55,493 nt of DNA, taken from positions 1 through 55,493 of IMG/VR virus record IMGVR_UViG_3300032266_000647; one strand, written 5' to 3'. This DNA is from a virus. Taxonomy: Duplodnaviria > Caudoviricetes. Within the stretch, counting starts at the first letter, position 1. Each line of letters starts with the position of its first letter. The notes beneath the pieces were generated by a model. The model had not been told where the DNA came from. It saw nothing but the letters and a program-made list of their open reading frames with translations, and made no database searches. Positions 59 through 55,493 of the stretch are shown here, piece after piece. The translations under genes were made by a program, and so were the position numbers.

Positions 59-89
59 GGGAAAACGGGCCTACGCGGCTCGTTTTCCC
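59..89. terminator. Hairpin after the tRNA fragment and at the int stop (terminator-like)
   Basis: GGGAAAACGGGCC-TACGC-GGCTCGTTTTCCC. Confidence 0.6.
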
Positions 90-1072
90 GCCCCGCGCTT
101 TGTCCCCACCCTGACCCCAGCCAGCCGCGGTAGCGTGGACACGGCGCCGCGCAGGTGCGCGGGCGACAGGTGGGCGTAGCGGTTGGTCACAGCCAGCGAC
201 GAGTGCCCCATCAGATCGCGGATTGCGGTCAGCGCCTGGCCGCGCTGGGCCAGCCAGCTCGCGTAGGTGTGCCTCAGATCGTGCCAGCGGACGTGCGGCA
301 GGCCAGCGGCCAGCCGGGCGGCATCAAACCGCTTGCGCAGCTCCCAGTATTCGACGCCCCACGGCAGCCGCTTGCGGGCGATCGCCGCGGCCTCGGGCGG
401 CAGCGGCAATCCGCGCGGCCGGCCGCTCTTGGTGTTGGCGTCCAGCGCCAGCACCCGGCCGCGAAGCTGATCCGGTTGCAGGCGCAGTAACTCGGATCGG
501 CGCAAGCCGGTCAGGACGGCGAAGGCGATCATGTCGGCGGTCAGCGGATCCGTGGCAGCCTGGAGCGCCCGCACCTGGTCGGCAGTCAGGTAGACGTGCC
601 GCTGGCTGTTCTCCGGCAACAGGATCACGCGCCGGCCGAGCGGTGCGTCCGTCCATCCCCAGCGTTCGGCCAGGTTGCCGACGCGGCGGAGGAGGGCAAC
701 GTAGCGGTTGATCGCCGCCGGCGTCAGGCCGTTCGTCTGGCCAGCCGCCTTGATGCGGTCAGCGACATCCGGCAGATCCGCCAGCGGCCGGCCGGCGGTG
801 TACTCGCGCAGGATGCCGATGCGGTAGCGCAGATCGCGCTCCCAGGATTTCAGGGCTTTGGCGCCCGTCTCGATCCAGCGGTCGAGCGCGTCGTCGATCG
901 TGTGCTGCGCTAGGGCACCAGTCGCAGACGTGAGGAGCTGGTGCTTGATGCGAGTTTCGAGCGCCTGCGCGTCGGCGCGGGTTGCACCGACCGGAAGGCT
1001 GCGCTCAATGCGTCGGCCGCTTCCCAGGCGGAGGCGGACTTGCCAGCGGTTGCCGTGCTTTCTGATCGACAC
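71..1072 (-). CDS. int: Tyrosine integrase, phage type
   Basis: TGLRRSEL, TKSGRPR, HDLRHTYASWL, LMGHSS, RYAH catalytic motifs. Likely GTG start at 1072 with GGAG upstream (ORF open to 1132). No IntI-type insertion before the HxxRH box. Confidence 0.95.
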   Translation of the reverse strand: MSIRKHGNRWQVRLRLGSGRRIERSLPVGATRADAQALETRIKHQLLTSATGALAQHTIDDALDRWIETGAKALKSWERDLRYRIGILREYTAGRPLADLPDVADRIKAAGQTNGLTPAAINRYVALLRRVGNLAERWGWTDAPLGRRVILLPENSQRHVYLTADQVRALQAATDPLTADMIAFAVLTGLRRSELLRLQPDQLRGRVLALDANTKSGRPRGLPLPPEAAAIARKRLPWGVEYWELRKRFDAARLAAGLPHVRWHDLRHTYASWLAQRGQALTAIRDLMGHSSLAVTNRYAHLSPAHLRGAVSTLPRLAGVRVGTKRGAGKRAA

Positions 1073-1263
1073 TGGCGGAACTCCTGCTCCGAAATGTATC
1101 GCTCGATCTCGCTCGGGCGGATGCGCCGGCACGATCGAATCGGAACAATAGCAAGTCGGCCGGCGGCGATCTCGCGCTCGATGGTCTTCATCGACACGCC
1201 GAGCTGCGCCGCGGCGTCGCGCAGCGTCAGCAGCGTCAGCAGTTGTCGTTCAGCGGGTTTCAC
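910..1263 (-). CDS. xis: Excisionase-like HTH protein
   Basis: LLTLRDAAAQLGVSMKTIEREIAAGRL...RRIRPSEIERYI; overlaps the int 5' end. Confidence 0.8.
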   Translation of the reverse strand: MKPAERQLLTLLTLRDAAAQLGVSMKTIEREIAAGRLAIVPIRSCRRIRPSEIERYISEQEFRQCRSESTATAGKSASAWEAADALSAAFRSVQPAPTRRRSKLASSTSSSRLRLVP

Positions 1264-1278
1264 GGTTTTCGAGGTGGA

Positions 1279-1800
1279 TTATTCGGTGAGCGGTGCGGTC
1301 TGAATCAAGTTGTGCAGCATCTTGCCAGCCAGCCCTGAACACGCCAGCGCTTTGGCGTTGGCTTCGCCATAGGCCACCAGCACGCTTGGGGCGCCAGAAT
1401 TCGCGGCGGCGCGGCGGCCGTCGACAAAGTGAAAGTGCAGCCGGCCTTTCAGGAACAGCCAGGCCGTCGCGCGCTCCCACACCCACGGGAAGAAAATTGC
1501 CGTCTCGGTGCGCGCGAAGATCAGCGCCACGCCGTTGCTGTGGTCGGCCATGCGCTCCATCCACTTGGCTGTCTCCTGCCCGTATGGCGGGTTCAACCAC
1601 ACGCGGCCTGTCCAGGGCTTCGCCAGCCCGTTGTCGGCGGCGGTGTAGTGCGTGGCGGCCATCGGCCAGGGCCGCACAGCCGGCGCGCACGGATCCAGAT
1701 CGAACGGGCCAAGCGCTTGCAGCACATGCGGCGGCGTCAGCCACTCGTCGTTCTTCATGCGCGCGCTTTGGTGTGCACTCAGTCCCATCTTCCTTCGCAT
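1279..1800 (-). CDS. Phage N6-adenine DNA methyltransferase (Dam-like); cassette 1
   Basis: NDEWLTPP, FDLDPCA, VWLNPPYG, IFARTET, FLKGRLHF. Confidence 0.9.
   Translation of the reverse strand: MRRKMGLSAHQSARMKNDEWLTPPHVLQALGPFDLDPCAPAVRPWPMAATHYTAADNGLAKPWTGRVWLNPPYGQETAKWMERMADHSNGVALIFARTETAIFFPWVWERATAWLFLKGRLHFHFVDGRRAAANSGAPSVLVAYGEANAKALACSGLAGKMLHNLIQTAPLTE
1297..1315 (+). mobile_element. Left array boundary: core site GTTGTGC (attI-like or half site)
   Basis: GTTGTGC at 1309-1315 is the exact complement of R'' GCACAAC at 1814-1820, so the two bracket the MTase gene. Confidence 0.55.
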
Positions 1801-1813
1801 CCTCGGTGGTGTG

Positions 1814-1870
1814 GCACAACTATGTGGTCAAGCGGATGCCGTGCCGGCGCCGCTTACCTGGGCGTTAGGC
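1814..1870 (+). mobile_element. attC site 1 (57 bp)
   Basis: GCACAAC-TATGT-GGT[C]AAGCGG[A]TGCCG-TGC-CGGCGCCGCTTACC-TGGGC-GTTAGGC; R''/L''/L'/R' boxes with two extrahelical bases at canonical positions. Confidence 0.85.
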
Positions 1871-2344
1871 ACTTGTAGCGCGATTCTTCGCTTCGTGATT
1901 GGCAACGTCGTTTTGCACATGCCTATCAACCGCGCCCGGATCGTCGAATCGCGCCTGCGTCCGGTCACTACACAGGTAGTAGGTGCTGCGCTCCGGACTG
2001 CTGTGGTCGCGCAGCCAACGGTAATTCATGGCATGCGTCGCGGCATCGCGCACGTATTGCGCTTCCTCGCCCCTGCCGTCCTTCGCCAGTTCGTGCGCGA
2101 GCTTCATCAATCGCACATACCAACGGTTCTCGTCGTGCCATGCGCTCATTTCCATCCTCCGTTCCCGCGCAGCATGTTCCACAACATCCACGTCAGCACT
2201 CCCAGCGCCATCACTACCGGCACTGTTGCCAAGGCCAGCAGTATGTGCAGCAGGTTCCATTCGCAAACCATAAGTCACCTCGTCAGTCTGCGCACGGCTT
2301 GCGTGCGCCCATGTATCAAGTCGTGCTCTTGCCGTGAATCGCAT
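1865..2344 (-). CDS. Hypothetical protein; cassette 2
   Basis: ORF lies exactly between attC1 and attC2; GGAGG SD next to the core site; its TAA stop is inside the core site. Confidence 0.75.
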   Translation of the reverse strand: MRFTARARLDTWAHASRAQTDEVTYGLRMEPAAHTAGLGNSAGSDGAGSADVDVVEHAARERRMEMSAWHDENRWYVRLMKLAHELAKDGRGEEAQYVRDAATHAMNYRWLRDHSSPERSTYYLCSDRTQARFDDPGAVDRHVQNDVANHEAKNRATSA

Positions 2345-2356
2345 CGCCACCTCCGC

Positions 2357-2413
2357 GCCTAACTGGGCGCTGCATCGGACGCGCTACGCGCGCCGATGAT
2401 CTTCACGTTAGGC
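2357..2413 (+). mobile_element. attC site 2 (57 bp)
   Basis: GCCTAAC-TGGGC-GCT[G]CATCGG[A]CGCGC-TAC-GCGCGCCGATGATC-TTCAC-GTTAGGC. Confidence 0.85.
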
Positions 2414-2818
2414 GTCACAGAGGCGCACTCGCTCAATGTCCACTTCGTTCGCATGTATCAGCCCCTCGACCACCATGCGCTCAACGATGCGTCGGTCGAA
2501 GTGTCGGCCGTAGCATGTGTCGTTCACGCCACCGCGCCGGTATAGGCGATGGTCGCCGTGAATGGATGTGTATTCGTAGCCCTGTTGCCGCAGCCCCACG
2601 AACAGCGCGGACTGCTTCTCGTACTCTTCATCTGTCAGCGGGTTCTCGCCAAACCGGCCGCCGTTGCTGCCAAAGATGGCGACCACAGGCATCCAGCCAA
2701 TCTCTCGGTGTTCAATGGCAACGCCACCGCCGGCCGGCGTCGCTACTTTCACCGGCCAGTCTTCCGGGAAAGCGCTCAGTGCGCGGATGTAGTCACCAAC
2801 GGTTTTCAGTTTTGCCAT
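2408..2818 (-). CDS. Hypothetical protein; cassette 3
   Basis: AGGAG SD; TAA stop inside the attC2 core; flanked by a perfect 12-bp inverted repeat, GTTAGGCGTCAC (2407-2418) and GTGACGCCTAAC (2839-2850). Confidence 0.8.
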   Translation of the reverse strand: MAKLKTVGDYIRALSAFPEDWPVKVATPAGGGVAIEHREIGWMPVVAIFGSNGGRFGENPLTDEEYEKQSALFVGLRQQGYEYTSIHGDHRLYRRGGVNDTCYGRHFDRRIVERMVVEGLIHANEVDIERVRLCDA

Positions 2819-2838
2819 CTTTTCTCCTGTGGCGTGCA

Positions 2839-2864
2839 GTGACGCCTAACACGCCGGTTAAAAC
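2839..2864 (+). mobile_element. Right array boundary: R'' half site abutting the ssb stop codon
   Basis: GCCTAAC-ACGCC-GGTTAAAAC; no matching L'/R' arm found. Confidence 0.6.
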
Positions 2865-3301
2865 GGGATGTCATCGTCCAGATCCCCCATGCTGGCAGCC
2901 GCGGCCGGCCGGCTCGATGTGCGCGCGGGGGCGCGTGCCGGGGTGGGCGCACCGCCTTCTGCCGGTTTGCTGTCGCCCTCGGGCGCCGGGCCGACCAGTT
3001 CCAGCGACGCGACGCGGCCGACCAGCTTGTGCCCGATCGTCCCGTCCTTCTTCGTCCAGGTGTCGATACGCACGTCTTCCAGCACGACGTAGATCGCGCG
3101 GCCGCGCGGCAGCATGGGCGCCAGCGTCTCGGCGCGGCTGCCCCACAAGCCTGCCTCGACCCACTGCGTCGGCCGCTTACCGTCTTCGCCCTTCTTGCCG
3201 TAGTTGTAGGCCAGGCTGAGCGTTGCGACGGGATCGCCGCTCGGGAGATAGCGCACTTCGGCGCTGTGGCCGAGCCGGAAAACGCCGGTCATGATCGTCA
3301 T
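2858..3301 (-). CDS. ssb: Single-stranded DNA-binding protein
   Basis: OB-fold motifs (RLGHSAEVRY, TQWVEAGLWG) and C-terminal DDDIPF. Confidence 0.95.
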   Translation of the reverse strand: MTIMTGVFRLGHSAEVRYLPSGDPVATLSLAYNYGKKGEDGKRPTQWVEAGLWGSRAETLAPMLPRGRAIYVVLEDVRIDTWTKKDGTIGHKLVGRVASLELVGPAPEGDSKPAEGGAPTPARAPARTSSRPAAAASMGDLDDDIPF

Positions 3302-3302
3302 G

Positions 3303-3593
3303 TCAATCCTTTCGTACAAGTGCCCACAAGTTTCTCGGCTTGCCGCTGCGGCCGGCCTTCGGCGGCAGTTTGTCCGCGATGCGGATCAACTTTCGTTCGC
3401 TGAGCGTTGTCAGCGGTGTCTGTAGCTGCCGTGGAGTCAGGCCAACCAGCGGCGCCAAATCCTCGGTCGTGATGCCGTTCGGGTGATCCTTGATTCGCGC
3501 CAGGATGATCCCCTTCACATCTTCGGACGCCGCCGGATTGGTGTCCTCCTCGTCCCAGCAGAGACTGACTTTCCGGCCGGGTAGATCCTTCAT
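3303..3593 (-). CDS. Hypothetical, winged-HTH-like
   Basis: GITTEDLAPLVGLTPRQLQTPLTTLSERKLI...GKPRNLW. Confidence 0.55.
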   Translation of the reverse strand: MKDLPGRKVSLCWDEEDTNPAASEDVKGIILARIKDHPNGITTEDLAPLVGLTPRQLQTPLTTLSERKLIRIADKLPPKAGRSGKPRNLWALVRKD

Positions 3594-7847: not shown

Positions 7848-8798
7848 TTACTTGGCAAGCGCGTCGATCTGCGCGAGCTGGTCGGGGGACAGAGAGAACC
7901 GGCTGGCCAGCATGGCGCGCAGATCCTCGACAGTGATGTCGCCGTTGCTGATCTGCGACCGCGCCAGATCCAGGCGCTCCGCGAATTGCTCGGCCGACAC
8001 GGACGGCAGCGACTTGTCCGGCTGCGCAGGCGGCGGCGCGCCGGTGATTTCGCCGGTCGCGTTGTCGATGGTTAGCGGGTTGTCTTGTGACAGCCCGGCC
8101 TCCGCTTGCTCGTCCAGGCCGACCGCGGTCGCCAGCTCGATCGACACCGGCAGGTACTTGAAGACGCGCCGGATAACGGTCTTCTTGGCCATTTCCTCGA
8201 AGTGATCGACCCAGGGGCCGCTGTTGCCGGCCTTGCTCTTGGCGCGCACCCGCTCGATCTCGGCGCGCGACATGACCTCAAACTGCGTGCCGCCGTCTTT
8301 CATCTTGGCGACCGCGTAGACGAAGCGCAGCGGGCCGCGGTCTTCCGCTTCCCAGTTGGGTTCGTGCTGCAAATCGGGGTTGAGGCCGAGGGCGACGTGA
8401 AAGCGATCGGCCTGATAGACGGCGCGCGCTTCGATGCTGAGGATCTGCCCACTGCGGCGCGCCAGGTCGATCATGCCGCGGTAGCCGACGATGAACTGGA
8501 CTTCGGTGATTCCCTTCTTGCGGTTCTCGAACGGCAGCAGGTAAGCGTGGCCGAGGGCGCCGCCCGGCTCCAGCCCGAGCTGCGCGCACTGCATGATCGC
8601 GCCGAGGAAACTGGCCTGGTCGCACGACGCGAGTGCCGGCGATTTGCGCACTTCGGTCAGCGCAATGCGCGCGAGGCGGTCGGCCGTCATGTGCCGGGGC
8701 AGGGCCAGCGCCATCTGCTCCTTGATGCGGCGGTCGGCCAGTAGGGTGGTGATGGTGGCGGGCGCCTTGGCGCCGCTGGTGGTGGTGACGTTGCTCAT
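7848..8798 (-). CDS. recT: RecT single-strand annealing protein
   Basis: ALPRHMTADRLARIA, AQLGLEP, GHAYLLPF, GYRGMIDLARRSG, EMAKKTVIRR. Confidence 0.95.
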   Translation of the reverse strand: MSNVTTTSGAKAPATITTLLADRRIKEQMALALPRHMTADRLARIALTEVRKSPALASCDQASFLGAIMQCAQLGLEPGGALGHAYLLPFENRKKGITEVQFIVGYRGMIDLARRSGQILSIEARAVYQADRFHVALGLNPDLQHEPNWEAEDRGPLRFVYAVAKMKDGGTQFEVMSRAEIERVRAKSKAGNSGPWVDHFEEMAKKTVIRRVFKYLPVSIELATAVGLDEQAEAGLSQDNPLTIDNATGEITGAPPPAQPDKSLPSVSAEQFAERLDLARSQISNGDITVEDLRAMLASRFSLSPDQLAQIDALAK

Positions 8799-35544: not shown

Positions 35545-36333
35545 ATGGGAAGCAAGGGAGGTTCCGCTCCGCCGCCGGATCCGCGCCTGGTCGAAGCGCA
35601 GATTCGCTCGATGGGCGTGCAGGACGACATGATCCGGCGCATCGTCGATAACAGTGAGTCGATGATGCCGCTCCAGCGCGAGCAGGCGCAGTTTGCGCTG
35701 GACACCGGCCGGCGCGCGGTGGCCGATGCCGCGGCTGACCGGGAGTGGATGCTGACGCGGCGGGGCATGTTGTCCGGCACCCAGGATCGGCTGGTCAATC
35801 AGGCCAACGAGTTTGATGCGCGCGTGCGCAATGACGAGCTGGCCAGCGAAGCCAACGCCGACGCTCAGACGGCGATTTCAAGCGCGCGGGCCTCGTCCGG
35901 CCGCGAGCTGGCGCGCCGCGGCGTGATGCCGTTTTCCGGTCGCATGGCGGGCACGGATGCCCGGATGGCGCTGGGTGGCGCGGCAATGCTGGCCGGCGCG
36001 CAGAACAACGCGCGGCGCGCGGCGCGTCAGGAAAACTACGCGCTGACCGACAGGGCAGCCAACGCGCTGGCCGGCTACCCGGCGATGTCTGCCGCCGCCT
36101 CGAATCAGGGCGCCGGCATCGCGGCCAACGGCGTCAACGTGGTCAACGCCGGCGCGGCTGGCATGAACGCGGGATTCGGCCAGGCTGCCGGGGTCGCCGG
36201 TCAGATGGGCAGCAACGCGACAAGCATGTGGGGCGCGCAAGCCAACTACAACGCGAATATGGCCGGCCAACAGGCGCAGGGCGCCGGCGCGCTGGTCGGT
36301 GGCCTAAGTACGCTGGGCGCGGCGTTCCTCTGA
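35545..36333 (+). CDS. Putative ejection (pilot) protein
   Basis: MGSKGGSAPPPDP start; Gly/Ala/Asn/Gln-rich; hydrophobic C-terminus. Confidence 0.65.
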   Translation: MGSKGGSAPPPDPRLVEAQIRSMGVQDDMIRRIVDNSESMMPLQREQAQFALDTGRRAVADAAADREWMLTRRGMLSGTQDRLVNQANEFDARVRNDELASEANADAQTAISSARASSGRELARRGVMPFSGRMAGTDARMALGGAAMLAGAQNNARRAARQENYALTDRAANALAGYPAMSAAASNQGAGIAANGVNVVNAGAAGMNAGFGQAAGVAGQMGSNATSMWGAQANYNANMAGQQAQGAGALVGGLSTLGAAFL

Positions 36334-37046
36334 TGGAGGCGCTGTTCGACCGCCACAAGAACGTGGCGCTGTCGTTCTCCGGCGGCAAGGATTCGCTCGC
36401 CCTGCTGCACCTGATGCGGCCTTGGTGGGATCGGTTGACCGTTTACTGGCTGAATCCGGGCAACCCGTTGCCCGAGACGGTCGAGCAGATGGCGCAGGTG
36501 CGCGAGCGGGTGCCGCACTTCAAGGAGGTCGCCGGACTCCAGCGCGAGATCATCGCGGCCGACGGCTGGCCCTCGGACGTGGTGCCGCACCGATACACCA
36601 GCGACAGCAATGCGATCTTCGGGCCGACGCCGTTCAAGGTGCAGGCGCGCCTGCAATGCTGCATCCGCTCGATGATGGTGCCGCTGTGGCGCGCGCTGCG
36701 CGCCGATGGCGTTACCTGCGTGCTGCGCGGCAAGCGGCGAACCGAGGCCGACCGCACCGGGATCGAGAGCGGCCACGTTGCCGAAGGCATCGAGGTCGTG
36801 TTCCCGCTGCTGGACTGGCGTGCCAGCGACGTGTTCCGGTTCCTGGAGGAGCGCGACGTGGATCTGCCGGCGACCTACCGGCACGCATCGCACTCGCTTG
36901 ACTGCATGGACTGTACGGCGTGGTGGGGCGAAGGACAGGGCGCCTACCTGAAAGCGGCGCACCCGGCGATGTTCCGGCAGTACGCGCGCCGGATCTGGCT
37001 TATCAAGCGGGCCGTGGCCGATCAACTGGACGAATGCGAGGTGTGA
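36333..37046 (+). CDS. PAPS/APS reductase-family (PP-loop) protein
   Basis: LSFSGGKDS, GKRRTE, PLLDW, QCC...SLDCMDC. Confidence 0.85.
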   Translation: MEALFDRHKNVALSFSGGKDSLALLHLMRPWWDRLTVYWLNPGNPLPETVEQMAQVRERVPHFKEVAGLQREIIAADGWPSDVVPHRYTSDSNAIFGPTPFKVQARLQCCIRSMMVPLWRALRADGVTCVLRGKRRTEADRTGIESGHVAEGIEVVFPLLDWRASDVFRFLEERDVDLPATYRHASHSLDCMDCTAWWGEGQGAYLKAAHPAMFRQYARRIWLIKRAVADQLDECEV

Positions 37047-38683: not shown

Positions 38684-38712
38684 GACCGGCGTTTCGTTCG
38701 GTCAGGGTGGCC

Positions 38713-41700
38713 ATGAGCAAGCTCGAAGACTTCTTGGACGGCAAGCTGCCGTCTGCCGGCTCGTCGCAAATCGAAGACTTCCTGGCCGGTCGGCCGATCA
38801 AGCCGACAAAGCCGGCCGCGCCATCAAGCGGTGCGACGGCGGGCGACTGGCTGCACGCCGGATCGCAGGCGGTCGGCGAGGGCATTCTGGCCGCGCAGGG
38901 CGGCATCGGCACGTTCATCCAGGCGCCGGGCGCCTATCTGGAATCGGCGCTGCAAGGCGGCGCGGCCGCGCTTAATCGCGGCGTCTCCAAGCTGACCGGC
39001 GGCATCGTTCCGATCGACGAGGACGTGCAGAAGACCGCGCGGGACTTCTCGCGCATGGCGGCGGCAACGCGCAAGGAGAACGTCGCGGCCGAGGATGGCA
39101 CCTGGCTGAACCCGGCCACGACGGCGGCGCGCATGGGCCTCGGGCTGCAACTGGACGCGAATCAGCGCATTTCGCAGATCGAGGCAGAGAACCGCGAGCG
39201 CAACCCGGAGCTGGTGCGCCAGCAGCAAGCGATCTCGGACGCCGAGGGCTTCGTCGGGACGCTGAGCGCGCTGAAAGACAACCCGCTGGGGTTCGGCTAC
39301 ACGCTGGCGCGATCTGCGCCGGACATGATCGCCGGCCTGGGCATTGCGCGTGGCGCGGCATCGGCAACGATGCGCGAGGGCGCGGTGGCTGCGGAGAAGG
39401 CGGCGGCCAGCGTGGCGGCAGCGGGCGGCAGCGCCGCGGCACAGAAGGCCGCGGCCGACGCGGCGATGCAGCAGGCCCAGCGCAGCGCGGTCGGAAGCGC
39501 AAGCGTGGCTGGCACTGCGGCCGAGGGCGTCTCGTCGTCGTACAACGGCCGCGAGGGTGTCTACCGCGAGGTCATGAACCTGCCAGAGAAGACGCTGGAG
39601 ACGGCGCCGCGCTTCCGGGAAGTGCTGGCCGAGGCCGGCGGCGATCGTGCGCGGGCGCGCGAGATCCTGGCCAACGAGCTGGCCGATCAGGCGACGCTGC
39701 TGTCCGGTGCAAGCACGATGGCCGGTTCGATGCTGACGCGCCGGCTGTTCAAGGGCGACACGACGGCCGAGGCGGTGGCCGGCGTCAAGCCGCTGACGCT
39801 GCGGCAGGTGGGCCGCAACGTGCTGGAAGAAGGCTTCGAGGAGGGCGCGCAGGGGCTGGGCGAGGACGCGGCGCAGTTCGTTGCCGCTTCGCAGGCGGAT
39901 CCATCCAAGAAGTTCGACGTGGGCGGCACGCTGGCGCAGAACATCGCGGCCGGCGCCGTCATGGGCGCGGGCGGGACGGGCGGCAAGTATGCCTACGAGC
40001 GGGCGCGCGACCTGAGTCAACCGACGCCGCCGGGCGCTGCACCGACGCCGACCAGCGCGCCGGACATTTCGCCGACGGCGCCTGCCGCACCGCCGGCTGC
40101 TGCCGCACCGCCGGCCGCGCCGATGGCGACCGCCGGGGCCGACGACGAGGCCGCGCGCAAGCTGATGGCGCCGGTCAACATGACGGCGCTCGACCGCGTG
40201 CCGGAGATCGACACCGAGGCGGGGCAACTGACCGCGCGGCTGGCCGAGCTGAACGATCCGGCCGGCACCTATGGCCAGATGTTCGACCAAGAGCGCGCGG
40301 AGATTGCCAGCCGGCGCACTGCACTCCAGCAGGAGCGCGATGCGATCACGGCGGGCTGGCCGAAGGCGACGCCGGGGGCGCCGGCCTCGTTCTCGACGGA
40401 GACGGGCGCGCGCCTGGCGGGTCAGTACGCGCTGATGGACGCCGACGAGCTGACCACTTCCCATGACGTGAATTTGCGCGAGGATCCGCGCTACCCGAAG
40501 GATCTGCAACCGCGCGACCGCACGCGCGCCGCCTCGGAGATCCAGGTGTCGGGCATCGTCTCGAAGCTGGATCCTGCCCGGCTGGGCGTCTCCGCGGATT
40601 CGGCCAACGGCGCGCCGATCGTGGGCGCCGACGGCCTGGTGGAGTCGGGCAACGCGCGCACGATCGCCCTGAAACGGGTGTACCAGGCCAACGGCCAGAA
40701 GGCCGAGGACTACAAGGCGTTCCTGCGCGCCAATGCCAGCCAGTTCGGGCTGACGCCGGAGGCGGTGGACGGCATGGCCAAGCCGGTGCTGGTGCGCGTG
40801 CGCCAGACGCCGGTGAACCGCGCCGAGTTTGCGCGCCAGGCCAACGTGACGACGGTGCAGCGGATGTCGCCGTCCGAGCAGGCGCTGTCGGATGCGAAGC
40901 GGCTGACCACGCTGGAGGGGCTGAACCCGGACGACGAAGGCAACTTCACGTCGTCGAGCGACTTCATTCGGCAGTTCATGTCGATCCTGCCGGCGACCGA
41001 GCAGTCGGACATGCTGGAGGCCGACGGCAAGCTGTCTACGGCGGGCTACCGGCGGATCCAGAACGCGGTGCTGGCGAAAGCCTACGGCGACTCCCCGACG
41101 CTGCGGCGGATGACGGAGAGCCTGGACGACAACCTGCGCAACGTCTCGAAGGCGCTGGTGCGTGTGGCGCCGATGATCGCGGATGCACGCGAGCGCATGG
41201 GCGTGGGCACGCTGCACCAGGCTGACATCGCGCCCGATCTCGTTTCGGCGGTCGAGGGGCTGTCGGCATTGAAGGACAAGGGCTGGCGCGTGGCCGACGA
41301 GCTGGCGCAGGGCGACCTGACCGGGCCGAAGTATTCTGCCGAGGCAGGCGAGCTGCTGACGTTCCTGTCGGACAACATTCGTAGCCCGCGGCGCATGGCC
41401 GAGTTCGTCCAGCGGTACTACGAGGCGCTGGCGGCATCGGGCGACCCGAGCCAGGCGTCGATGTTCGGAGACGCGCCGGCGCCCAGCAGAATGAGCCTGA
41501 TTGAGCAGGCGCGAGGAGGCATCAATGCAGGACAAGCAGATCGAGGCGGTGCGCAAGCTGCTGCGCCAGGTGGACAGCAATCCGAAGGTGCGCAACGCGG
41601 TGGCGATGGCGCTCGCGGCGATGCCGGAGGCAGCACCGGAGACACCCGACTCAGCCGCGCCGCCAATCGCGGCGCCGAAGATGCCGACTGGGTAGCCTTC

Positions 41701-44700
41701 CCGGAGTCGTCCGGCACGCTGGGCATTCCGCGCGCGCAGATGCCCCAGGTAAAGGTGAGCGATCGGCTGGAGCTGCTGCGCTGGCTGGGCGAGCGAGGTA
41801 TTACGAACGAGCGCGCCGAGGTGGCGGCCGACACGTTGCGGCCGACGCAAGCGGAGTTCTCGCCGGCCAAGGTGGCGCGCTGGAACAACAGCGGGTCGGG
41901 CGATCGCTCCGTGCTGGTGTCGTCCGACGGTTACATCCTCGATGGGCACCACCAATGGCTTGCCGCGCGTGCCGCTGACGAGCCTGTGTCTGTCGTGCGG
42001 CTTGATGCGCCGATTCGCGGCCTGCTCGATGCCGTCAACAAGTTCCCGAAGACGCAGCGCTCGCCCGGCGCCAACGTGATCGACCTGGCGCAACTTCGCG
42101 CCGCCGCAGCGCAGGACTTCAACGACGCGCTGGCCGATCTGGCGGCGATCGCCTCCACGAACACGCGCGCGGCGCTGATGCCGGAGGACACGCCGAACCT
42201 GATGCCGACGCTGGTCAAGCTGTTCGGCGCGGCAATCCGCATGGTGGGCACGGACTTGAAGCGGGCAACCCGCTGGGTGAAGGATCAACTGAAGGCCGAC
42301 CCGCAGTTCAAGAAGGTCTGGAACCGGATCGCGGACGAGACGTATCGCAAGGCGGCGATGCAGGCGCTCGAAGGGATGGACGCGCCGGCCCAGGGCGGCC
42401 TGTTCGATTCGCCGGCCGTCGCGACTCAGGCTGTGCAGGGCGGGCTGTTCGACGCCGTGCCGGAGCAACCCGCGAAGGCGGCCGACGGCAAGCGGGCGAC
42501 GGTGGTTGCAAGGACGCTGGAAAAGGCGCCGGCTGTCGCCACGATCGTCATCGACGGTCAGACCCACGACCTGGACGCGCCTGACTTTGGCGCGGATCCC
42601 TGGCCGCGCACGCTGCCGGACGACTCGCCGCTGCTGCGCGAAACGAACAACCTGGCCGACGACTCGGATGTGACTTATGGCGGCGAAACGATGACCCGTG
42701 CTCAAATGCGCGCCCGCATCGTTGACGCACATTTCGAGGGGCTGCGGCCGGCGCCAGCGAGTCGCAAGCCGATCGTCTACATCATGGGGGGCGGTGGCGC
42801 GAGCGGCAAGGGCACGATCAAAAAGCGCCTGATTGCCGAGGGGCGCATGGACGCATCGGGCGCCGTGAACCTCGATCCCGACGAGATCAAGGTCGAGCAC
42901 ATTCCAGAGTACAAACAGATCGTTGCGGCGGGCGATTCGCGTGCCGCCGCGGTCGTGCATGAGGAAAGTTCCGGCATTGCCGCAACCGTGCGGTCGCGCG
43001 CGATCGTGGATCGCTTTGACCTGGTGCTGGACGTGACCCTGGGCGATCAGGGCAAGGGCGAAAAGCTGCTGCGCACCCTGAAGGATGCGGGCTACGAGGT
43101 TCGGCTGTACGGCGTGACGACGAACCCGCTGGTGTCGATTGTGCGGGCCATCAAGCGCGCCAAGGGTTCGGGCCGCTACGTGCCGATCAACCATCTGCTG
43201 CAAGCGCACAAGGGATTCAATGCCGCCTTTGAAAGCTACGCGGCCATTGCCGACGAGGCGCTGCTGTTTGAAAACAGCGGAGAATCCCCGCAGATGCTCG
43301 CCAGCGCAAGCGCAGGCGTTGCACTGAAAACCGAAAACGGATACAATATTGTTGCCGAAAGGAGCAAACTCAATGAACGTGCGAAAACTCTGCGCGATGT
43401 CAGCCGTGGAGAGGAACAAGGCGCTCGCCGCGATGAGTCTGGCCGAGGCAATGGAGTACCAGGCGGGGATCGAGGCGCTGGCCAACGAGCTGATGGACAA
43501 GGCCAAGAAGACCCCGGCCGAGCGGGAGATGCTGGACTTCTGCAACGAGGACGGCGCCTGGGAGGCGAACCGGACGGTGCGCGAGGCGCGGGCCAAGGAA
43601 CGCAAGGCAGCGAGCAAGGCGGCGTAAATGCAAACGCACAACCTGGTCAAAGCGGCAATCAAGGACAAGGCGCCGGCCCTGTATCGGCAACTCAGCGCAA
43701 GCGGCGAGCTGAATCAGTACGCAACGGATCTCGCGGACGAGATCAACGCGCAGGTGGTGACGCTGACGCAGGAACAGCGGACCAGGGAGGGCTGGGACAA
43801 GCTCGGCCCGATGGCGTGCGCGGCCAGAATGAAAACGGCAATGAGCCTGAACAACGAGCTGGTGCTGGCGCAGATGCTGGAGTTCCCGCAGGACGAGACA
43901 TCCCCGTCAAGTCCGGACGCAACTACCGATTCGGCCCCGATGACCTGACCTACGCGGGGACGTGGCTCCAGAAAGCCACGGCCAACGTCGAGGCCGTCGA
44001 GCTGCTCAAAGCGCTCGAAAAGGAAGGCCGCCAGGCCACGCGCGAGGAACAGCAAAAACTCGCGCAGTTCATCGGCTGGGGCGCATCCGAGATCGCCAAT
44101 TCGATCTTTGGCGACAAAATCAAGAAGAAAGAGGCGGCGGTGCGCGCATGGCAGCGCGTGCTGGCGGCGCGCGCCGAGGGCTTGACGCGCCTCGATCGCC
44201 GCGCAAACGACTACTGGACGATCGCTCAACCGCTGATCGAGGCCAAGTCGATGCGCTACGGCGACGATCTGTACCTGACCGACCTGACTGCCTCGAAGTT
44301 CAATGTGTCCGGCTCCGATGTGAAGTACCTGGAGCTGCGCGATCGGCTGGCGGGCGCGCTGACCAAGGAGGAGTTTGCCGAGGCGTCGCGCTCGACCCAG
44401 TACGCGCACTACACCAGCAGGGCGATCGTGCGCGCGATGTGGGCGGCGATGGAGCGCATGGGCTTCAAGGGCGGCACGGTGCTGGAGCCGGGCGCCGGCA
44501 TTGGCATCTTCCAGGGGTTGATGCCCGAGGCGATCGCGGCCAACAGCGCATACACCGGCATCGAGTTCGATTCGGTGACGGGCGGCATCCTGAAACAGTT
44601 GATGCCCGACGAGCGGATCCTGGTGGAGTCGTTCGTCGATTCGCGGCTGCCCAAGGGCTTCTACGACGTGGCCATCGGCAATCCGCCGTTCTCGGGCACG

Positions 44701-47700
44701 AAGATCCTCGGAGATCCGGAGTACGCGAAGCGGGCATTCAGCCTGCACGACTACTTCTTTGCCAAGTCGATCGACCGCGTGAAGCCGGGCGGCCTGGTGA
44801 TGTACGTGACCAGCCGCTACACGATGGACAAGCTGGACGACAAGGCGCGCGCTTACCTGAACGAGCGCGCCGACCTGGTGGGCGCGATCCGGCTGCCGCA
44901 AACGGCGTTCCAGGAAAACGCCGGCACCGAGGTCGTGACCGATGTCATCTTCCTGCGCAAGAAAGTCGCGGGCGAGACGTGGGACGGCGGCCAGGCATGG
45001 GCAAAATCGGTGCCGATGACGGTCGGCGGCGCCTCGTTCCCGATCAACGAGTATTTCCACGCGCACCCGGACATGGTGCTGGGGTCGCACTCCGACACCG
45101 GCAAGATGCACGCCACCGCGGAGCCGCAATACACGGTGATCCCGCGCAAGGGCGACATCGAGGCGCACTTTGCCGCCGCCGTGGCCACGCTGCCCGAGGG
45201 GATCTACAAGGCTGCGCGCGGATCGGCCGCCGAGGCCGCGAAGGTGCGCGAGATTGATTTCAACCCGAAGGCGAAGAAGGAGGGTAACTACTACGTCACG
45301 GACGCTGGCGTGCTGATGGTGCGCGAGGGCGGGGTGGGCCAGCGCGTCGAGTTGCGCAACCCGAAGGACGTGGAGCTGATTAAGGACTTCGTGCCGCTGC
45401 GCGATGCGTTGAAGCAGGCGCACTACGACCAGCTCAACAACCTGGACTGGCGCACCAGCCTGACGGCGCTGGGCACGGCCTATGAGAAGTTCGTCAAGAA
45501 GCATGGCCAGGTCAATCAGTTCACCTTGCGGGTCAAGAAGACGCAGGAGGTTGACCCGGACACCGGCGAGAAGTTCGTCGATGAGTCGATGGTGCGCAAC
45601 TTCACGCTGCTGTCCAAGCTGAAAGACGACCCGGACGTGACGCTGGTCGCCGCACTGGAGGAGATCAACGACGACACCGGCCAGATCAAGCCCAGCGCAT
45701 TCCTGAGCGAGCGCGTGCTGGGCAAGCCGGCCGATGCGCGCGTCAACAGCCCGATGGACGCGCTGCTGTCGTCGCTGAACGACATTGGTCATGTGGACAT
45801 CGACCTGATTGCGCAGCGCGTGGGCCTGGCGCCGGCCGAGACGATTGCCGAGCTGGGCACGGCGATCTATGACGACCCGGAGGCCGGCTGGGTGATGGCC
45901 GACGAGTACATGTCGGGCAACGTCAAGCGCAAGCTGAACCTGGCGCGCGAGTCCGCAAAGTCGGACAAGCGCTACGAGCGCAACGTGATCGCGCTGGAGG
46001 CGGTGCAGCCGGCGGCGCGGCAACCGTCGCAGATCAACATCGGCCTGGGCATGAACTGGATCCCCGGCGAGGTCTATGCCGACTTCGTGCGCGAGCTGGC
46101 TGGCGTGCGCGCGACGGTGGCGTGGAATCAGGCGACGAAGCAGTGGATCGTGACCGAACAGGCGGGCGGCAGCACGTTGCGGGCCACGGCTGACTGGGGC
46201 ACGAACCGGCGCAACATCACGGAGCTGCTGGAGCATGGTCTGACGGGCCGGCCGATCCAGATTACCGAGAAGACGAGCGACGGCAAGACGATCACGGCCA
46301 CGGCCGCGATCGAGGCGGCCAACCTGAAACTGGAAGCGATCAAAGAGCGGTTCAAGGCGTGGGTGTGGGAGAACCCCGAGCGCACCGACAAGCTGGTCAA
46401 GCTGTTCAACGATCAGTTCAACACCACGGTTCCGCGGTCGTTCGACGGTCGGCACCTGACGCTGCCCGGCACGTCCAAGACGTTTGACGTGTTCCCGCAC
46501 GTCAAGCGCGGCGCCTGGCGGATCATCCAGAAGGGCAACACCTACCTGGCGCACGCCGTCGGATCGGGCAAGACGTTCCAGATGGTCATCAGCGCGATGG
46601 AGCAGAAGCGGCTGGGCTTGATTAAGAAGCCGATGGTGGTCGTGCCGAACCACATGCTTCAGCAATTCGCGCATGAGTGGCAGATGCTTTACCCGGCCGC
46701 GCGCCTGATGGTGGCCGACGAAAACAACTTCCACACCGACAACCGCCGCCGCTTTGTCTCGCGCGTGGCGCTGTCCGACCTGGATGGCGTGGTCATCACG
46801 CACAGCGCGTTCAAGCTGCTCGACCTGGATCCGGCGTTCAAGCGCGGGGCGATCGAGCAACAACTGGAGGTGATGCGCGCCTCGCTGGAGCAGGCCGAGG
46901 AGGCGGACGGCAAGGGCGGTCGCAAGTCGCCGCGCATCAAGCAGATCGAGAAGCAGATCGAGAACATGGAGCAAAAGCTGGAGGAGGCCATGTCCTCGGA
47001 GGGCAAGGATCGCAACGTGCGATTCGACGAGCTGGGCGTCGATTTCCTGTACGTTGATGAGGCGCACGCTTACCGCAAGCTGGATTTCATCACCACGCGC
47101 CAGGTCAAGGGACTGTCGCCGGCCGGATCGGCGATGTCGTTCGATCTGTGGATGAAGGCGCGCTACCTGGACGAGAAGAAGCCGGGCCGATCGCTGGTGA
47201 TGGCCAGCGGCACGCCGGTCACGAACACGCTGGCCGAGCTGTATACGGTGCAGAAGTTCATGGCGCCGCAGACCCTCGAAGACCGGAACATCAGCGACTT
47301 TGACTCCTGGGCGGCGATGTTCGGCCGCGAGCGCACCGAGCTGGAGCCAAACGCCGCCGGCAAGTACGAGCCGGTGACGCGGTTCTCGAAGTTCGTCAAC
47401 GTGCCGGAGCTGATTCAGTCCTTCCGCGACTTTGCCGACGTGCTGACAGCCGACAACCTGGCCGCGCTGCTGGGCGACGCGCGGCCGAAGGTCGAGGGCG
47501 GCCAGCGCCAGATGATCGTGACGCCGAAGACCGATGAGTACAAGGTCTACCAGCGCGAGCTGGCCCAGCGCGTGAAGATCTCGAAGGCATGGAAGCCGAG
47601 CAAGGATCAGCCAAACAATCCCGACCCGATGATCCGCATCATTGGCGACGGCCGACTGGCCGCGATCGACATGCGGTTCGTGGATCCGAAGGCCGAACGC

Positions 47701-50700
47701 GACCCGGACTCGAAGCTGAACAAGATGATCGACGACGTGATCCGCGTCTTCAAAGAGACGGCGGACATGGAGTTCCGTGGGCCGGATAAGAAGGGGCCGG
47801 ACGGCAAGAAGATCAAGGGTTCTGGCGACATTGAGCCGAACAAAGGCGCGGCCATGATGGTCTTCTCCGACCTGGGGTTCGGTGCCGGTGTTACGGAAAG
47901 CCGGGGGTTCAACGCGCGCGCCTGGTTCACCAAGCGCCTGCGCGATGCGGGCGTGCCGGCCGATCAGGTGGCTTTCATGTCGGACTACAAGAAGTCGGCC
48001 GACAAGCTCAAGCTGTTCAAGGATGTCAACGCGGGCCGCGTGCGGATCCTGATTGGCAGCTCGAAGAACATGGGCACCGGCGTCAACGCGCAGCAACGCC
48101 TGAAAGCGCTGTTCCACCTGGATAGCCCCTGGTTCCCGGCGGATCTGGAGCAGCGCGAGGGCCGCATCGTGCGGCAGGGCAACAAGAACCTGCTGGTGCA
48201 GATCTTTGCCTACGCGACCAAGGGCACCTACGACGAAAACATGTGGAAGATGCTCGCCACGAAGCAGTATTTCATCGACCAGGCGATGAGTGGCGACGAC
48301 AACCTGCGCGAGATCGAGGATCTGGACAGTCAAAGCCAGTTCGACATCGCCGCCGGCCTGGTGGCCGAGGATCCGCGCATCTTGCAACTGGCGGGCGTGC
48401 GCGCCGAGATCGACAAGCTGAACCGGTTGTACCAGGCGCACGAAGATCAGCGCGCGCGCTTTCGCCAGCAGTATCAGATGGCGCAGATGGTGGTGGAGTC
48501 CACCGAGCGGCGACTGCCTGAGGCGGTGCAGGCGGCCGAGAAGGTGGTCGATCTGTCCGGAGACAAGTTCCGCGCGAAGGCGATGGGGCGGTCGTTCGAC
48601 GAGCGCGCGAAGTGGGGCGAGTCGTTGATCGCCGCGCTGAAAGACCTGACCGCGAAAGTCGAGACGAAGAAGACCAAGGTCGGAGAGATTTCGGGGTTCC
48701 CGGTCTACTTCATTGGTGAGAACGTGGCCGGCACGTACAGCGGGCGCATTGTGCTGGATGTGCCTAGCCCGGCAACGCTGGTGCTGTCCACCGAGACGGA
48801 TCTGTTCAGCGCGATGGGCCTGGCGATGCGTGCGCAAAATGCCGTGGCCGACGTGGGGCGCCAGCCGGCGCGGATGCGCGAGCGGATGGTCGAGTCACGC
48901 GCGCAGATGGATGCCGTGGCAACGCGCCTGGAGGCGGTATTCCCGATGGCGGGGATGCTGGCCGACAAGCGCAAGGAGGCGACCGAGCTGGAGGCGGCGA
49001 TCGAGGCCGACTCGAAGGAGCGCGACTTCTGGGTCGAGCGCAAGGACACTCGCACCGGCCATACGGTGAAGGCGACCAGCGCGGCCGATGCGATCGAGCG
49101 CGCGGTGAAGACCAACGGCGGAACGCCTGACGACTGGACGGCGATCGAGGGAGGCAAGCCGGAAATCCGGCTGTCGCGGCGCGGGATGGTGGCGGCCGAG
49201 CCGGGCGCCGCCTACAATGCGGGGTATGAAAACGACCTTTTCGGCAACCCGGTACAAGCCCCGCCCGTCGAGCTTGCACGCGCAAAGCGACCTGGTGCCG
49301 CCGGAAACCGGGACGTTCAGCCCGCGCCCGCCGTACTTGGCGATACGCAAGCCCCAGCCGGCGACTACTACGTCCGAACCGTCGTCGGAAAAGTCAGCGA
49401 CCGAAAACTCGGCGCCCCCCGGATCCTGAATGCCGAGGACGCGGCCCAGGCGACCGCGTACCTGTACAAGTCCGCGGTCGAGCGCTTCGACGCGATCGTC
49501 ACCGACAAAGACGGCAAGCCGCTGGCCGTCGTCGGCGGCTTCCGGGGCGCGCTGACGCAAACGTCCGTCTATCCGGCCACCGTGATGGGCGAGGCGATTC
49601 GTGTGCCGGGCGCCGCGAAGATCTGGTTCAGCCACAATCACCCGTCGGGCCTGGCCGTGTTGTCGCGTGCCGACGAGATGCTTTACCAGGCGATGGCCGA
49701 CGTGTTTAACGGCAGCGGCATCGAGCCGATGGGGATCCTGGTTGTTGCTGGACGTCGCTACGAGGCCGCCTTTTCAAATGGGGATCGGGTATCGGGGGGT
49801 GTGAAGGCGCCCGATGCCGCGGGCGCGACCGTGCCCGTCATCGAGCGCAACCTGGAAGACAACCGCGACGATGCCGCCCGGCTCGGCTCGCAGATCAGCA
49901 GCCCGCAGACCGCCAAGAAAACCGCCAAGACGATGTATGACGGCGCCAAAGCGCCGGGGCTGATGCTGCTGGACGCGCAAAATGTTCCGGCGGCGTGGGT
50001 GCCGTTGCCGACGAACACCCTGGGCCGGCTGCGCAACACCGGCGGCCTGGCCGCGCTGTATCGCGCGGTCAGTGAAAGCAACGCGGGGGCGGCGATCATC
50101 GTTCACGCCGGCGAGATGGATGCGCCCGTCGAGCAGAACATCGCAGCCGCGCTGAACAAGCTGGACGTGCGCACGCTGGACGCGATCAACGTCAAGACCG
50201 GCAAGTCGGCCGCCGAGAGCGGGCTGCACCTTGGTCAAGGCCCGGTGCTGTCGCGCGGCACCGCGCCGTCGGCCGGCGGCATGGACATCAAGGCGCTGCA
50301 AGCGGTGCGCGACCGGGTGGCGGCGAAGATGCCGAACATGCCGCGCGTGCATGTGCTGGCCGATCCCGGCAAGGCACCGAAGGCGCTGCGCGAATACATC
50401 ATCCGGCAAGACGCCTGGGGCGATGTCGAGGGCGCAATGCACAACGGCGAGCTGTACCTGTTCGCCTCTGGCCTGTCCGACGCGCTGCGCGCCGAGCATG
50501 TGCTGGCCGAGCATGAGGCCGCGCACGTCGGCCTGCGCGCGGTGCTGGGCGACAAGCTGGGCACCGCGATGAATTTGATCTACGCGCAGAACCCGAAGGT
50601 TCGCGCGGCGGTGTCCGACCTCCAGCGGCGCGGCAAGCTGTCGCGCGCCGAAGCGGTGGAGGAGGCGATCGTGGACATCCCAAGCGCCGAGCTTGCGAAG

Positions 50701-55370: not shown

Positions 55371-55493
55371 CTTGAAAACCGGCGACGGGCAACCGTCCGT
55401 GAGTTCGAATCTCACCGCCTCCGCCATAGGGAAAACGGGCCTACGCGGCTCGTTTTCCCGCCCCGCGCTTTGTCCCCACCCTGACCCCAGCCA
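55371..55493. repeat. Terminal direct repeat, right copy
   Basis: Identical to 1-123. Confidence 0.95.

Follow-up and report, generated by a model that had tools for sequence, protein, structure and literature searches.

A cassette array with integron-type attC sites in the xis-ssb interval of a temperate phage, probably the cassette end of a phage-borne integron

The window analyzed here is a stretch of 55,493 bases, the entire IMG/VR virus record IMGVR_UViG_3300032266_000647, which bears direct terminal repeats. Close to its left end, between the excisionase gene xis and the gene ssb (encoding a single-stranded DNA-binding protein) of a temperate phage, lie two complete integron recombination sites (attC) and three gene cassettes. 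Since at least two attC sites stand close together and the record holds no integron integrase gene (intI), this region is a CALIN (cluster of attC sites lacking integrase), a class defined by at least two attC sites without IntI and found in temperate and virulent phages according to the accessible text of PMC9892861. That the two sites and their units are genuine attC cassettes is, in our judgment, nearly certain. The reading that we favor, with a probability of about 60%, is that positions 1249-2863 are the cassette end of a phage-borne integron without its intI, in which an attI-like remnant is followed by three cassettes, with two intact attC sites and a third that has collapsed.

The sites were recognized with a covariance model, R1, built from 25 attC sites adjoining IntI in 10 genomes, the window not being used; R1 is our own model and not the attc_4 model of IntegronFinder. 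A bona fide IntI was defined as a TIGR02249 match above the 265-bit cut-off, and the IntI sources were one Agrilutibacter genome and genomes sampled from the order in which the phage integrase has its nearest chromosomal relative. The cassette-side DNA of 17 IntI loci was screened for core-plus-hairpin candidates, and the strand reading away from intI was taken as the R1 top strand. The R and L helices of the training alignment are 90.5% paired, exceeding all 500 shuffles and all slid controls. Run on the window with filters off, R1 gave two full-length matches on the + strand, of 42.5 bits (1814-1870) and 39.6 bits (2357-2413), in which the alignment covers positions 1-78 of the model and the L helix is paired; the next best of the 19 listed matches in the 55-kb window scores 11.3 bits. 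Seven held-out IntI arrays yielded 47 R1 matches of 16.4-54.3 bits, all on the expected strand, and ten control loci (about 78 kb) a single partial match of 16.1 bits. As the scores of both window sites lie within the held-out range, they are ordinary integron attC sites. A preliminary description of this DNA, made from the letters alone, had placed two 57-base-pair palindromes with attC anatomy at these same coordinates and had named an attC covariance-model search beforehand as a refuting test; with two strong matches, the search sustained it.

Both 57-base palindromes follow, on the + strand, the order R''-5 nt-L''...variable stem...L'-5 nt-R', with imperfect inner L''/L' repeats, unpaired five-nucleotide spacers and a variable central stem. 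The first site, attC1 (1814-1870), reads GCACAAC-TATGT-GGTCAAGCGG...CCGCTTACC-TGGGC-GTTAGGC, and the second, attC2 (2357-2413), reads GCCTAAC-TGGGC-GCTGCATCGG...CCGATGATC-TTCAC-GTTAGGC, at a spacing of 487 nt. Their outer cores fit RYYYAAC for R'' and GTTRRRY for R', the R'' of attC1 being off at one purine/pyrimidine position. On the - strand of each site, a G is bulged within the L box (registers CCGCTT-G-ACC and CCGATG-C-AGC) and a T is bulged directly 5' of the box (CAT/CCGCTT and GCGT/CCGATG), in agreement with the GTCC...TTGA pattern seen at IntI-adjacent sites. Extrahelical bases of this kind, two of which the preliminary description also gives, determine strand choice from the bottom strand. 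By folding energy alone, attC2 is the only convincing site, with a z value of -3.8 compared to just -1.7 for attC1. Taxonomic typing of the sites by arm identity is non-discriminating, as 32-33 of 48 positions match several loci.

Each of the three units opens with a TT-core complementary to its own R'' (7/7, 7/7 and 12/12 nt), so that the complementary core pairs proposed at the outset were found as stated. The core GTTGTGC at 1309, unique on the + strand across the 55,493 bases, is complementary to GCACAAC at 1814, the core GTTAGGC at 1864 pairs with GCCTAAC at 2357, and the 12-nt inverted pair 2407-2418/2839-2850 shows 100% complementarity. All four copies of GCCTAAC/GTTAGGC in the window are located inside 1864-2850; for the entire window, 2.0 copies would be expected. 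With crossover at G/TT, the cassettes extend over 1310-1864, 1865-2407 and 2408 to about 2857.

These hairpins might instead be something other than integron sites, namely host-type repetitive extragenic palindromic elements, terminators, chance hairpins, or the product of an assembly chimera. In line with such a reading, 11 of 200 shuffles of attC1, taken alone, fold at least as well as the site itself, and X1, the probable source run, is the only run in which a single contig spans both attC sites. It is nevertheless largely refuted, and we leave it hardly any weight: both R1 scores come with a strong strand preference and find no comparable match in the window or in the 78 kb of controls, the four core heptamers all cluster in the array, and the search for T-tract terminators came up empty. 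Identical pieces are present in run X4, which comes from another study; the one that crosses the junction between ssb and ORF136, the gene of the third cassette, argues against an assembly chimera there. A role of the hairpins as terminators or promoters was rejected on a consensus scan of 1100-3500, which returned 0 promoter-like and 0 terminator-like sites.

The whole-window R1 search showed no full third attC at the ssb end: the complete sites number two, not three, and in place of a third there are an R'' core and a short remnant at 2844-2863. This stretch, in which the R'' core is followed by six bases and then by a GTT that overlaps the ssb stop codon, looks like a collapsed attC. R1 was uninformative on the cut-out ssb-end stretch, where a genuine half-site cut alike also went unrecognized. 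The final codons of ssb (Asp-Ile-Pro-Phe-stop, 2846-2870, - strand) resemble the bottom-strand L'' box of IntI-adjacent attC sites (ATCCCGTTTTAAC versus GTCCCGCTTGAGC), a likeness that may be due to chance or may have aided recombination here.

IntI was not found in the 55-kb record. The best TIGR02249 match reaches 29.9 bits against the cut-off of 265 and lies inside the phage integrase, which, in accordance with the preliminary description, is not an IntI.

Searches for relatives returned eight loci with xis (39-54% identity), two with SSB (44%) and two with the 277-aa early protein (28-38%); no empty-site or near-identical relative of the xis-ssb interval was found with these three queries or in the phage collection, records very close to the window possibly lying outside what was searched. 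The locus L066 (record G407, 9,733 bases with holin-like genes) encodes an integrase 46% identical and an excisionase 50% identical to those of the window. It has a true IntI (468.3 bits) directly upstream of xis, the stop of intI overlapping the start codon of xis by one base (TAATG). Its three attC matches are on the strand opposite to intI, xis and int, in the same place and with the same polarity as in the window, and its cassette genes, including a C5 methylase (phrog_363, 5.5e-71), face intI. Because the intI stop overlaps the xis start and the phage integrase comes next, intI would be co-transcribed with the excision and integration genes. Judged by gene order, L066 is the layout of the window with intI retained. 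Given that a related contig has its own IntI at the same place, the window array looks like a phage-borne integron that lost intI, more than like a free-standing array. The initial interpretation is partly supported, namely as regards integron-type attC sites that bound three cassettes, a phage integrase that is not an IntI and relatives that differ at the core sites; its gene-shuffling array with a borrowed host integrase is conjectural.

The same IntI-xis-int arrangement is seen in L084, with xis 55% and int 51% identical to those of the window, and IntI followed by ssb is seen in L096 and L091/L092. In both loci, at 2991-4357 in L066 and 198-2494 in L084, the intI stop overlaps the xis start by one base and the phage integrase comes next. 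A search with the IntI of G407 gave 35 IMG/VR loci, G407 included, and 11 of the 34 scanned have R1 matches at E <= 0.01. Some IntI-bearing viral contigs may be prophage calls extending into host DNA; the intI-xis fusion in G407 argues against such a run-in for the nearest relative.

A consensus at the intI-proximal attI region is common to five IntI-bearing loci, and the window keeps part of it. When the 60 nt from G/TT toward xis in the window are compared with those toward intI in L066, 31 of 60 positions match, compared to 16.0 +/- 3.6 for random pairs, of which a fraction of 1e-4 reaches 31 matches; part of the window stretch is now xis coding sequence. Descent from an IntI-bearing phage integron, or exchange with one, is in our view likely. 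The array could also have been captured directly from a host chromosomal integron, without phage-borne integron ancestry, by IntI-mediated insertion at an attG (GWT) site in the interval from ssb to xis or by illegitimate recombination with a host array during lysogeny. The accessible text of 10.1101/2022.09.11.507474 reports that IntI can insert cassettes at GWT outside integrons and that excision can be imprecise. The left junction in the window is a bare G/TT, the right junction is at a GTT overlapping the ssb stop, and IntI is common in the sampled order, to which the nearest chromosomal int relative belongs: of 401 genomes, 164 have a match above the cut-off (162 of 399 when the two unpublished genomes G299 and G031 are excluded). 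However, the 60 nt left of G/TT resemble the attI region of the IntI-bearing relatives, the array has the same place and polarity as in L066, and a plain attG insertion should leave an intact attC at the right end, where there is none. We regard direct capture as quite improbable.

The cassette boundaries are also those at which related DNA varies, a comparison that the preliminary description had called for. Homologues of ORF136 adjoin R1 attC matches in five of the eight metagenome loci scanned (none at L059, L060 and L062); ten such loci were found, two of them being the same contigs as viral loci that had been scanned. Among the IMG/VR loci, attC matches adjoin ORF136 at L002, L003 and L004, on two contigs (L002, and G003 with L003/L004). 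ORF136 is antisense to attC in every other array with attC neighbors, in which the neighboring genes are mostly sense. Across the ORF136 copies, similarity is lost exactly behind GCCTAAC, and this same heptamer provides the stop codon. In run X2, a contig with 99% identity to the ORF136 cassette leaves the window sequence at 2405, two bases off the G/TT of attC2; contigs with 90-95% identity to the ssb end, from runs X2 and X3, do so at 2843, one base ahead of the R'' core. Such a switch of neighbors exactly at the cores in near-identical DNA points to recent exchange.

In the X2 contig, attC2 is replaced by GCCTAAC followed about 18 bases on by GTTAGGC, only 30 of the 155 loose letters being seen; this replacement stretch looks like another collapsed attC. 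The contig G003 (also L007+L008), an IMG/VR fragment of 23,987 bases with a GC content of 44%, belongs to an unrelated phage with a replication initiator, TerL, a portal and a major head protein. It has 11 attC matches in two clusters just upstream of TerL, the ORF136 cassette is common to it and the window, and its ORF136 is fused to a 3' remnant of a methyltransferase gene.

In the phage-borne integron that we favor, the recombining (bottom) strand of the attC sites would be the - strand of the window. The cassettes would have been captured, and would still be excisable or exchangeable at G/TT, by an IntI supplied in trans, encoded either by the host chromosome or by an IntI-bearing phage resident in the same cell. 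Such capture would probably occur during SOS induction, with single-stranded DNA and IntI present together. As to whether the cassettes can still be mobilized today, we hold the odds to be even.

Several observations weigh against this proposal. The last attC is collapsed, which together with the diverged attI-like stretch (31 of 60 positions) and the Dam methyltransferase frame of the first cassette, running 10 codons beyond the cassette boundary, fits a frozen, domesticated array. The window encodes no IntI, and no recombination joint or circle was seen in the contigs of the region, which cannot reveal rare forms. Six of the eight xis relatives show no attC match, including L067 and L068, the closest by integrase (58%), and neither do the backbone relatives L005 and L006 (RecT 81%, portal about 70%). 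The metagenome-assembled genome G004, in which the nearest int relative lies, lacks IntI. None of the 401 sampled genomes yielded ORF136, so that no tie to a chromosomal integron of that order could be drawn. Finally, the R1 training sites were first chosen by a core-plus-hairpin screen sharing the grammar of the preliminary description; the IntI adjacency of these sites and the held-out results are independent of that screen.

Part of this evidence would be expected if the attC sites were genuine and the array had been captured once, to become a fixed part of the genome in which the hairpins merely persist. The window is without intI, the terminal attC is reduced to R'', six nucleotides and GTT, the attI-like stretch has diverged, and the Dam frame crosses the cassette boundary; in the accessible text of 10.1101/2022.09.11.507474, attC hairpins are described as readily lost by replication slippage, leading to domestication. 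Against such a relic, the two bulged bases are still present in attC1 and attC2, whose scores fall mid-range among sites in a functional context, and near-identical DNA in other runs switches neighbors exactly at the cores. We consider the frozen relic rather unlikely, though with appreciable weight.

For both sites the attC top strand is the + strand, and every supported cassette gene is on the - strand (3 of 3 cassettes), in the same direction as ssb, xis and int of the early operon and opposite to the usual cassette orientation, in which promoterless genes follow the attC top strand and are read from Pc. Orientation was scored per inter-attC interval from the longest open reading frame (ORF). 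The held-out chromosomal arrays comprise 33 intervals: 25 have the ORF on the top strand, 3 have it on the bottom strand and 5 are unclear. Seven phage-associated IntI arrays, L066 included, show the opposite bias (Fisher P = 7e-6), with 2 top, 11 bottom and 6 unclear among 19 intervals. Pfam matches at the phage-associated IntI loci were obtained for 5 of 12 bottom-strand ORFs and for none of 7 on the top strand. The matches to Mom, a PAPS-reductase domain and a C5 methylase exceed the cut-offs, while those to DHH/DHHA1 and an Acb2/Tad1 hairpin fall below. The presence of Mom, methylase and similar cargo in IntI-bearing viral contigs suggests a function in counter-defense. Cargo genes in L096 (3230-4611), L089 (2562-4542) and L110 (2724-3512) are all on the IntI strand.

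As the cassette genes of the window point with the phage operon and no local promoter was found, read-through from the early leftward transcript is the simplest reading. They are most likely transcribed from the phage early leftward promoter and not from an integron Pc, in a transcript that would run through ssb, the cassettes, xis and int. The features of the array and its flanking genes are listed in Table 1.

Table 1. Features of the attC array and of the genes on either side (window coordinates).
Feature	Position	Strand	Evidence
attI-like remnant ending at the first crossover G/TT (1309/1310)	1249..1309	+	Partial match to L066 attI region
Core GTTGTGC, start of cassette 1, complementary to attC1 R''	1309..1315	+	Sole + strand copy
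Cassette 1 gene, N6-adenine DNA methyltransferase, Dam type	1279..1800	-	PF05869 1.7e-11; phrog_111 3e-44; PADLOC orphan methyltransferase
attC1, top strand +	1814..1870	+	R1 42.5 bits (E 1.2e-7), full model; - strand 9.2 bits
Cassette 2 gene ORF94/97, conserved, no family match	1865..2158	-	Stop codon within G/TTAGGC
Possible 41-aa membrane ORF, cassette 2, unsupported	2146..2271	-	Open frame only; no family match
attC2, top strand +	2357..2413	+	R1 39.6 bits (E 5.6e-7); - strand 9.9 bits; fold z = -3.8
Cassette 3 gene ORF136, conserved protein	2408..2818	-	Stop codon within G/TTAGGC
Last-attC remnant: GTGAC-GCCTAAC, 6 nt, GTTAAAA overlapping ssb stop	2839..2863	+	12-nt perfect inverted repeat with 2407-2418
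Phage ssb, upstream neighbor of array, same operon	2858..3319	-	PF00436 1.3e-9
Excisionase xis, 117-aa frame, HTH_17 within first 61 aa	910..1263	-	PF12728 5e-10
Phage tyrosine integrase, not IntI	71..1132	-	PF00589 1.8e-20; TIGR02249 only 29.9-32.1 bits vs cut-off 265

The cargo consists of a Dam methylase and two conserved proteins, for which a role in counter-defense or another accessory function is most likely. The core at 1309 sits 30 nt within the 3' end of the Dam frame. The Dam protein is 64% identical to Bcep176 gp44 and KL4 gp33, with a C-terminus that diverges just ahead of the core, and in Bcep176 and KL4 the gene is present without attC. The search of the phage collection matched the Dam gene alone, 9% of the query. 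ORF94 of the second cassette has 49 homologous clusters with 52-80% identity, and every full-length homologue ends with Ser-Ala-stop, as in the window core. ORF94/97 has no match in Pfam, PHROG, PADLOC or NCBIfam, and ORF97 has no relative among the viral contigs and no tblastn match in 50,697 phage records.

ORF136 has 217 homologous clusters, the best 120 listed being 61-86% identical. Its invariant residues include H37 R38 E39, N52 G53 G54, H87 G88 D89 and R91, H90 being nearly invariant, as well as C102 Y103 G104, D108, R110, E113 and R114. No match was obtained in Pfam, PHROG, PADLOC or NCBIfam, nor by tblastn in 50,697 deposited phage genomes; the PDB profile search gave nothing under E 0.59, and the ESM Atlas no usable match. 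The AlphaFold2 model of ORF136 has a predicted local distance difference test (pLDDT) value of 76, with a weak N-terminal half. With this model, Foldseek returned no PDB match at E <= 0.001, and the best Z in the wide VIA-align search was 3.6.

The direct terminal repeat of the record measures 123 bases (1-123 and 55371-55493) and contains, in bases 1-55, the 3' end of a tRNA beside int; no intact tRNA was found by ARAGORN in the window record. With a tRNA 3' end in the repeat next to int, the record ends are probably an att site rather than packaging ends. The PHROG profile is that of a temperate tailed phage, with integrase, excisionase, SSB, a RecT-like protein, primosomal protein, portal, endolysin, tail fiber and virion proteins. 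The left-end genes are uniformly on the - strand, in the order int, xis, Dam, ORF94/97, the possible 41-aa ORF, ORF136, ssb and more early genes. In the backbone relatives L005 and L006, ssb is present but is not accompanied by int, xis or attC in its neighborhood; as they share the backbone without it, the int-xis-array block behaves as a separate module. The RecT-like gene is at 7848-8798 (-). At the right end, a single open frame of 5,515 codons (38707-55254, +) lies just past a PAPS-reductase-like gene at 36228-37046 (phrog_424), and we take its product to resemble the giant virion protein of Bcep22-like Burkholderia phages.

When the array is compared with chromosomal and mobile integrons, it shares with them the attC anatomy, the G/TT boundaries, the complementarity of each unit to its own core, the stop codon in the core and the range of R1 scores. 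It differs by the lack of intI and of a Pc-like promoter, its platform being a phage early operon, and by bottom-strand genes in 3 of 3 cassettes, a placement seen in 3 of the 33 held-out chromosomal intervals. With L066/G407 and L084 it has in common the families of int (46-51%) and xis (50-55%), part of the attI consensus, an array upstream of xis of the same polarity, and antisense cassette genes including a methylase; unlike the window, those loci encode IntI (468 bits in G407), their cassette contents differ, and the remaining backbone is not common. Phage morons are small accessory genes with their own promoter and terminator, placed in a variable slot next to int/xis. The window resembles them in having small accessory genes beside the integration module, but neither promoter nor terminator was found here, and attC sites mark the limits of its units.

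Published work has already described integron parts in phages, so the kind of element is known. In the accessible text of Qi et al. 2023 (PMC9892861), 10,705 phage genomes yielded 3 complete integrons, one In0 and 17 CALINs. It describes five methylase cassettes, recombination with IntI1 for 5 of 6 phage attC sites tested, and a proposed role of the cassettes in helping phages escape restriction. The window agrees with these phage CALINs in the clustered attC sites without IntI and in the DNA methyltransferase cassette. It departs from them in that all its genes are antisense, whereas the cassettes there have the usual orientation or divergent attC sites. None of the three complete phage integrons is described in that text as fused to xis-int, while here an attI-like remnant abuts xis, and no Burkholderia, Ralstonia or Acidovorax phage is named among the hosts. 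Insertion by attC x attG, as presented in the accessible text of 10.1101/2022.09.11.507474, is similar in placing cassettes outside a complete integron, in their expression from a neighboring promoter and in the expected loss of attC by slippage; it differs in that an attI-like site, and not a bare GWT, precedes the first of three serial cassettes here. No account of intI fused to xis-int or of systematically inverted phage cassettes was found in searches of an open-access library, which is not proof of absence. What is new here are the backwards cassettes and the IntI-xis-int relatives.

More tentatively, and at somewhat less than even odds, there may be a temperate phage lineage that carries its own integron in the early leftward operon, with inverted, phage-expressed cassettes and counter-defense cargo including ORF136 and ORF94, and with which the window trades cassettes. 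The order in such phages would be cassettes, attI, intI, xis and int, all in one direction, and the cargo would comprise methylases (Dam and Dcm), Mom, and possibly sponges of nucleotide signals or phosphoesterases. Lacking intI, the phage of the window would trade cassettes with relatives or hosts that do encode IntI, at times when single-stranded DNA and IntI become available together on induction. If true, this lineage would be the mirror image of the bacterial integrons that stockpile anti-phage defense.

Should phages maintain integron arrays within early operons, they would have at their disposal a site-specific, cassette-by-cassette swapping of genes on top of mosaic recombination, and phage gene pools would be linked directly to bacterial integron pools. 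In the backwards layout, which is not described in the integron literature covered, the platform and not Pc would supply transcription. ORF136 and ORF94 are flagged as two widespread conserved proteins that are candidates for counter-defense. For annotation, attC models appear warranted on both strands of phage genomes, and CALINs beside int/xis may be remnants of phage-borne integrons.

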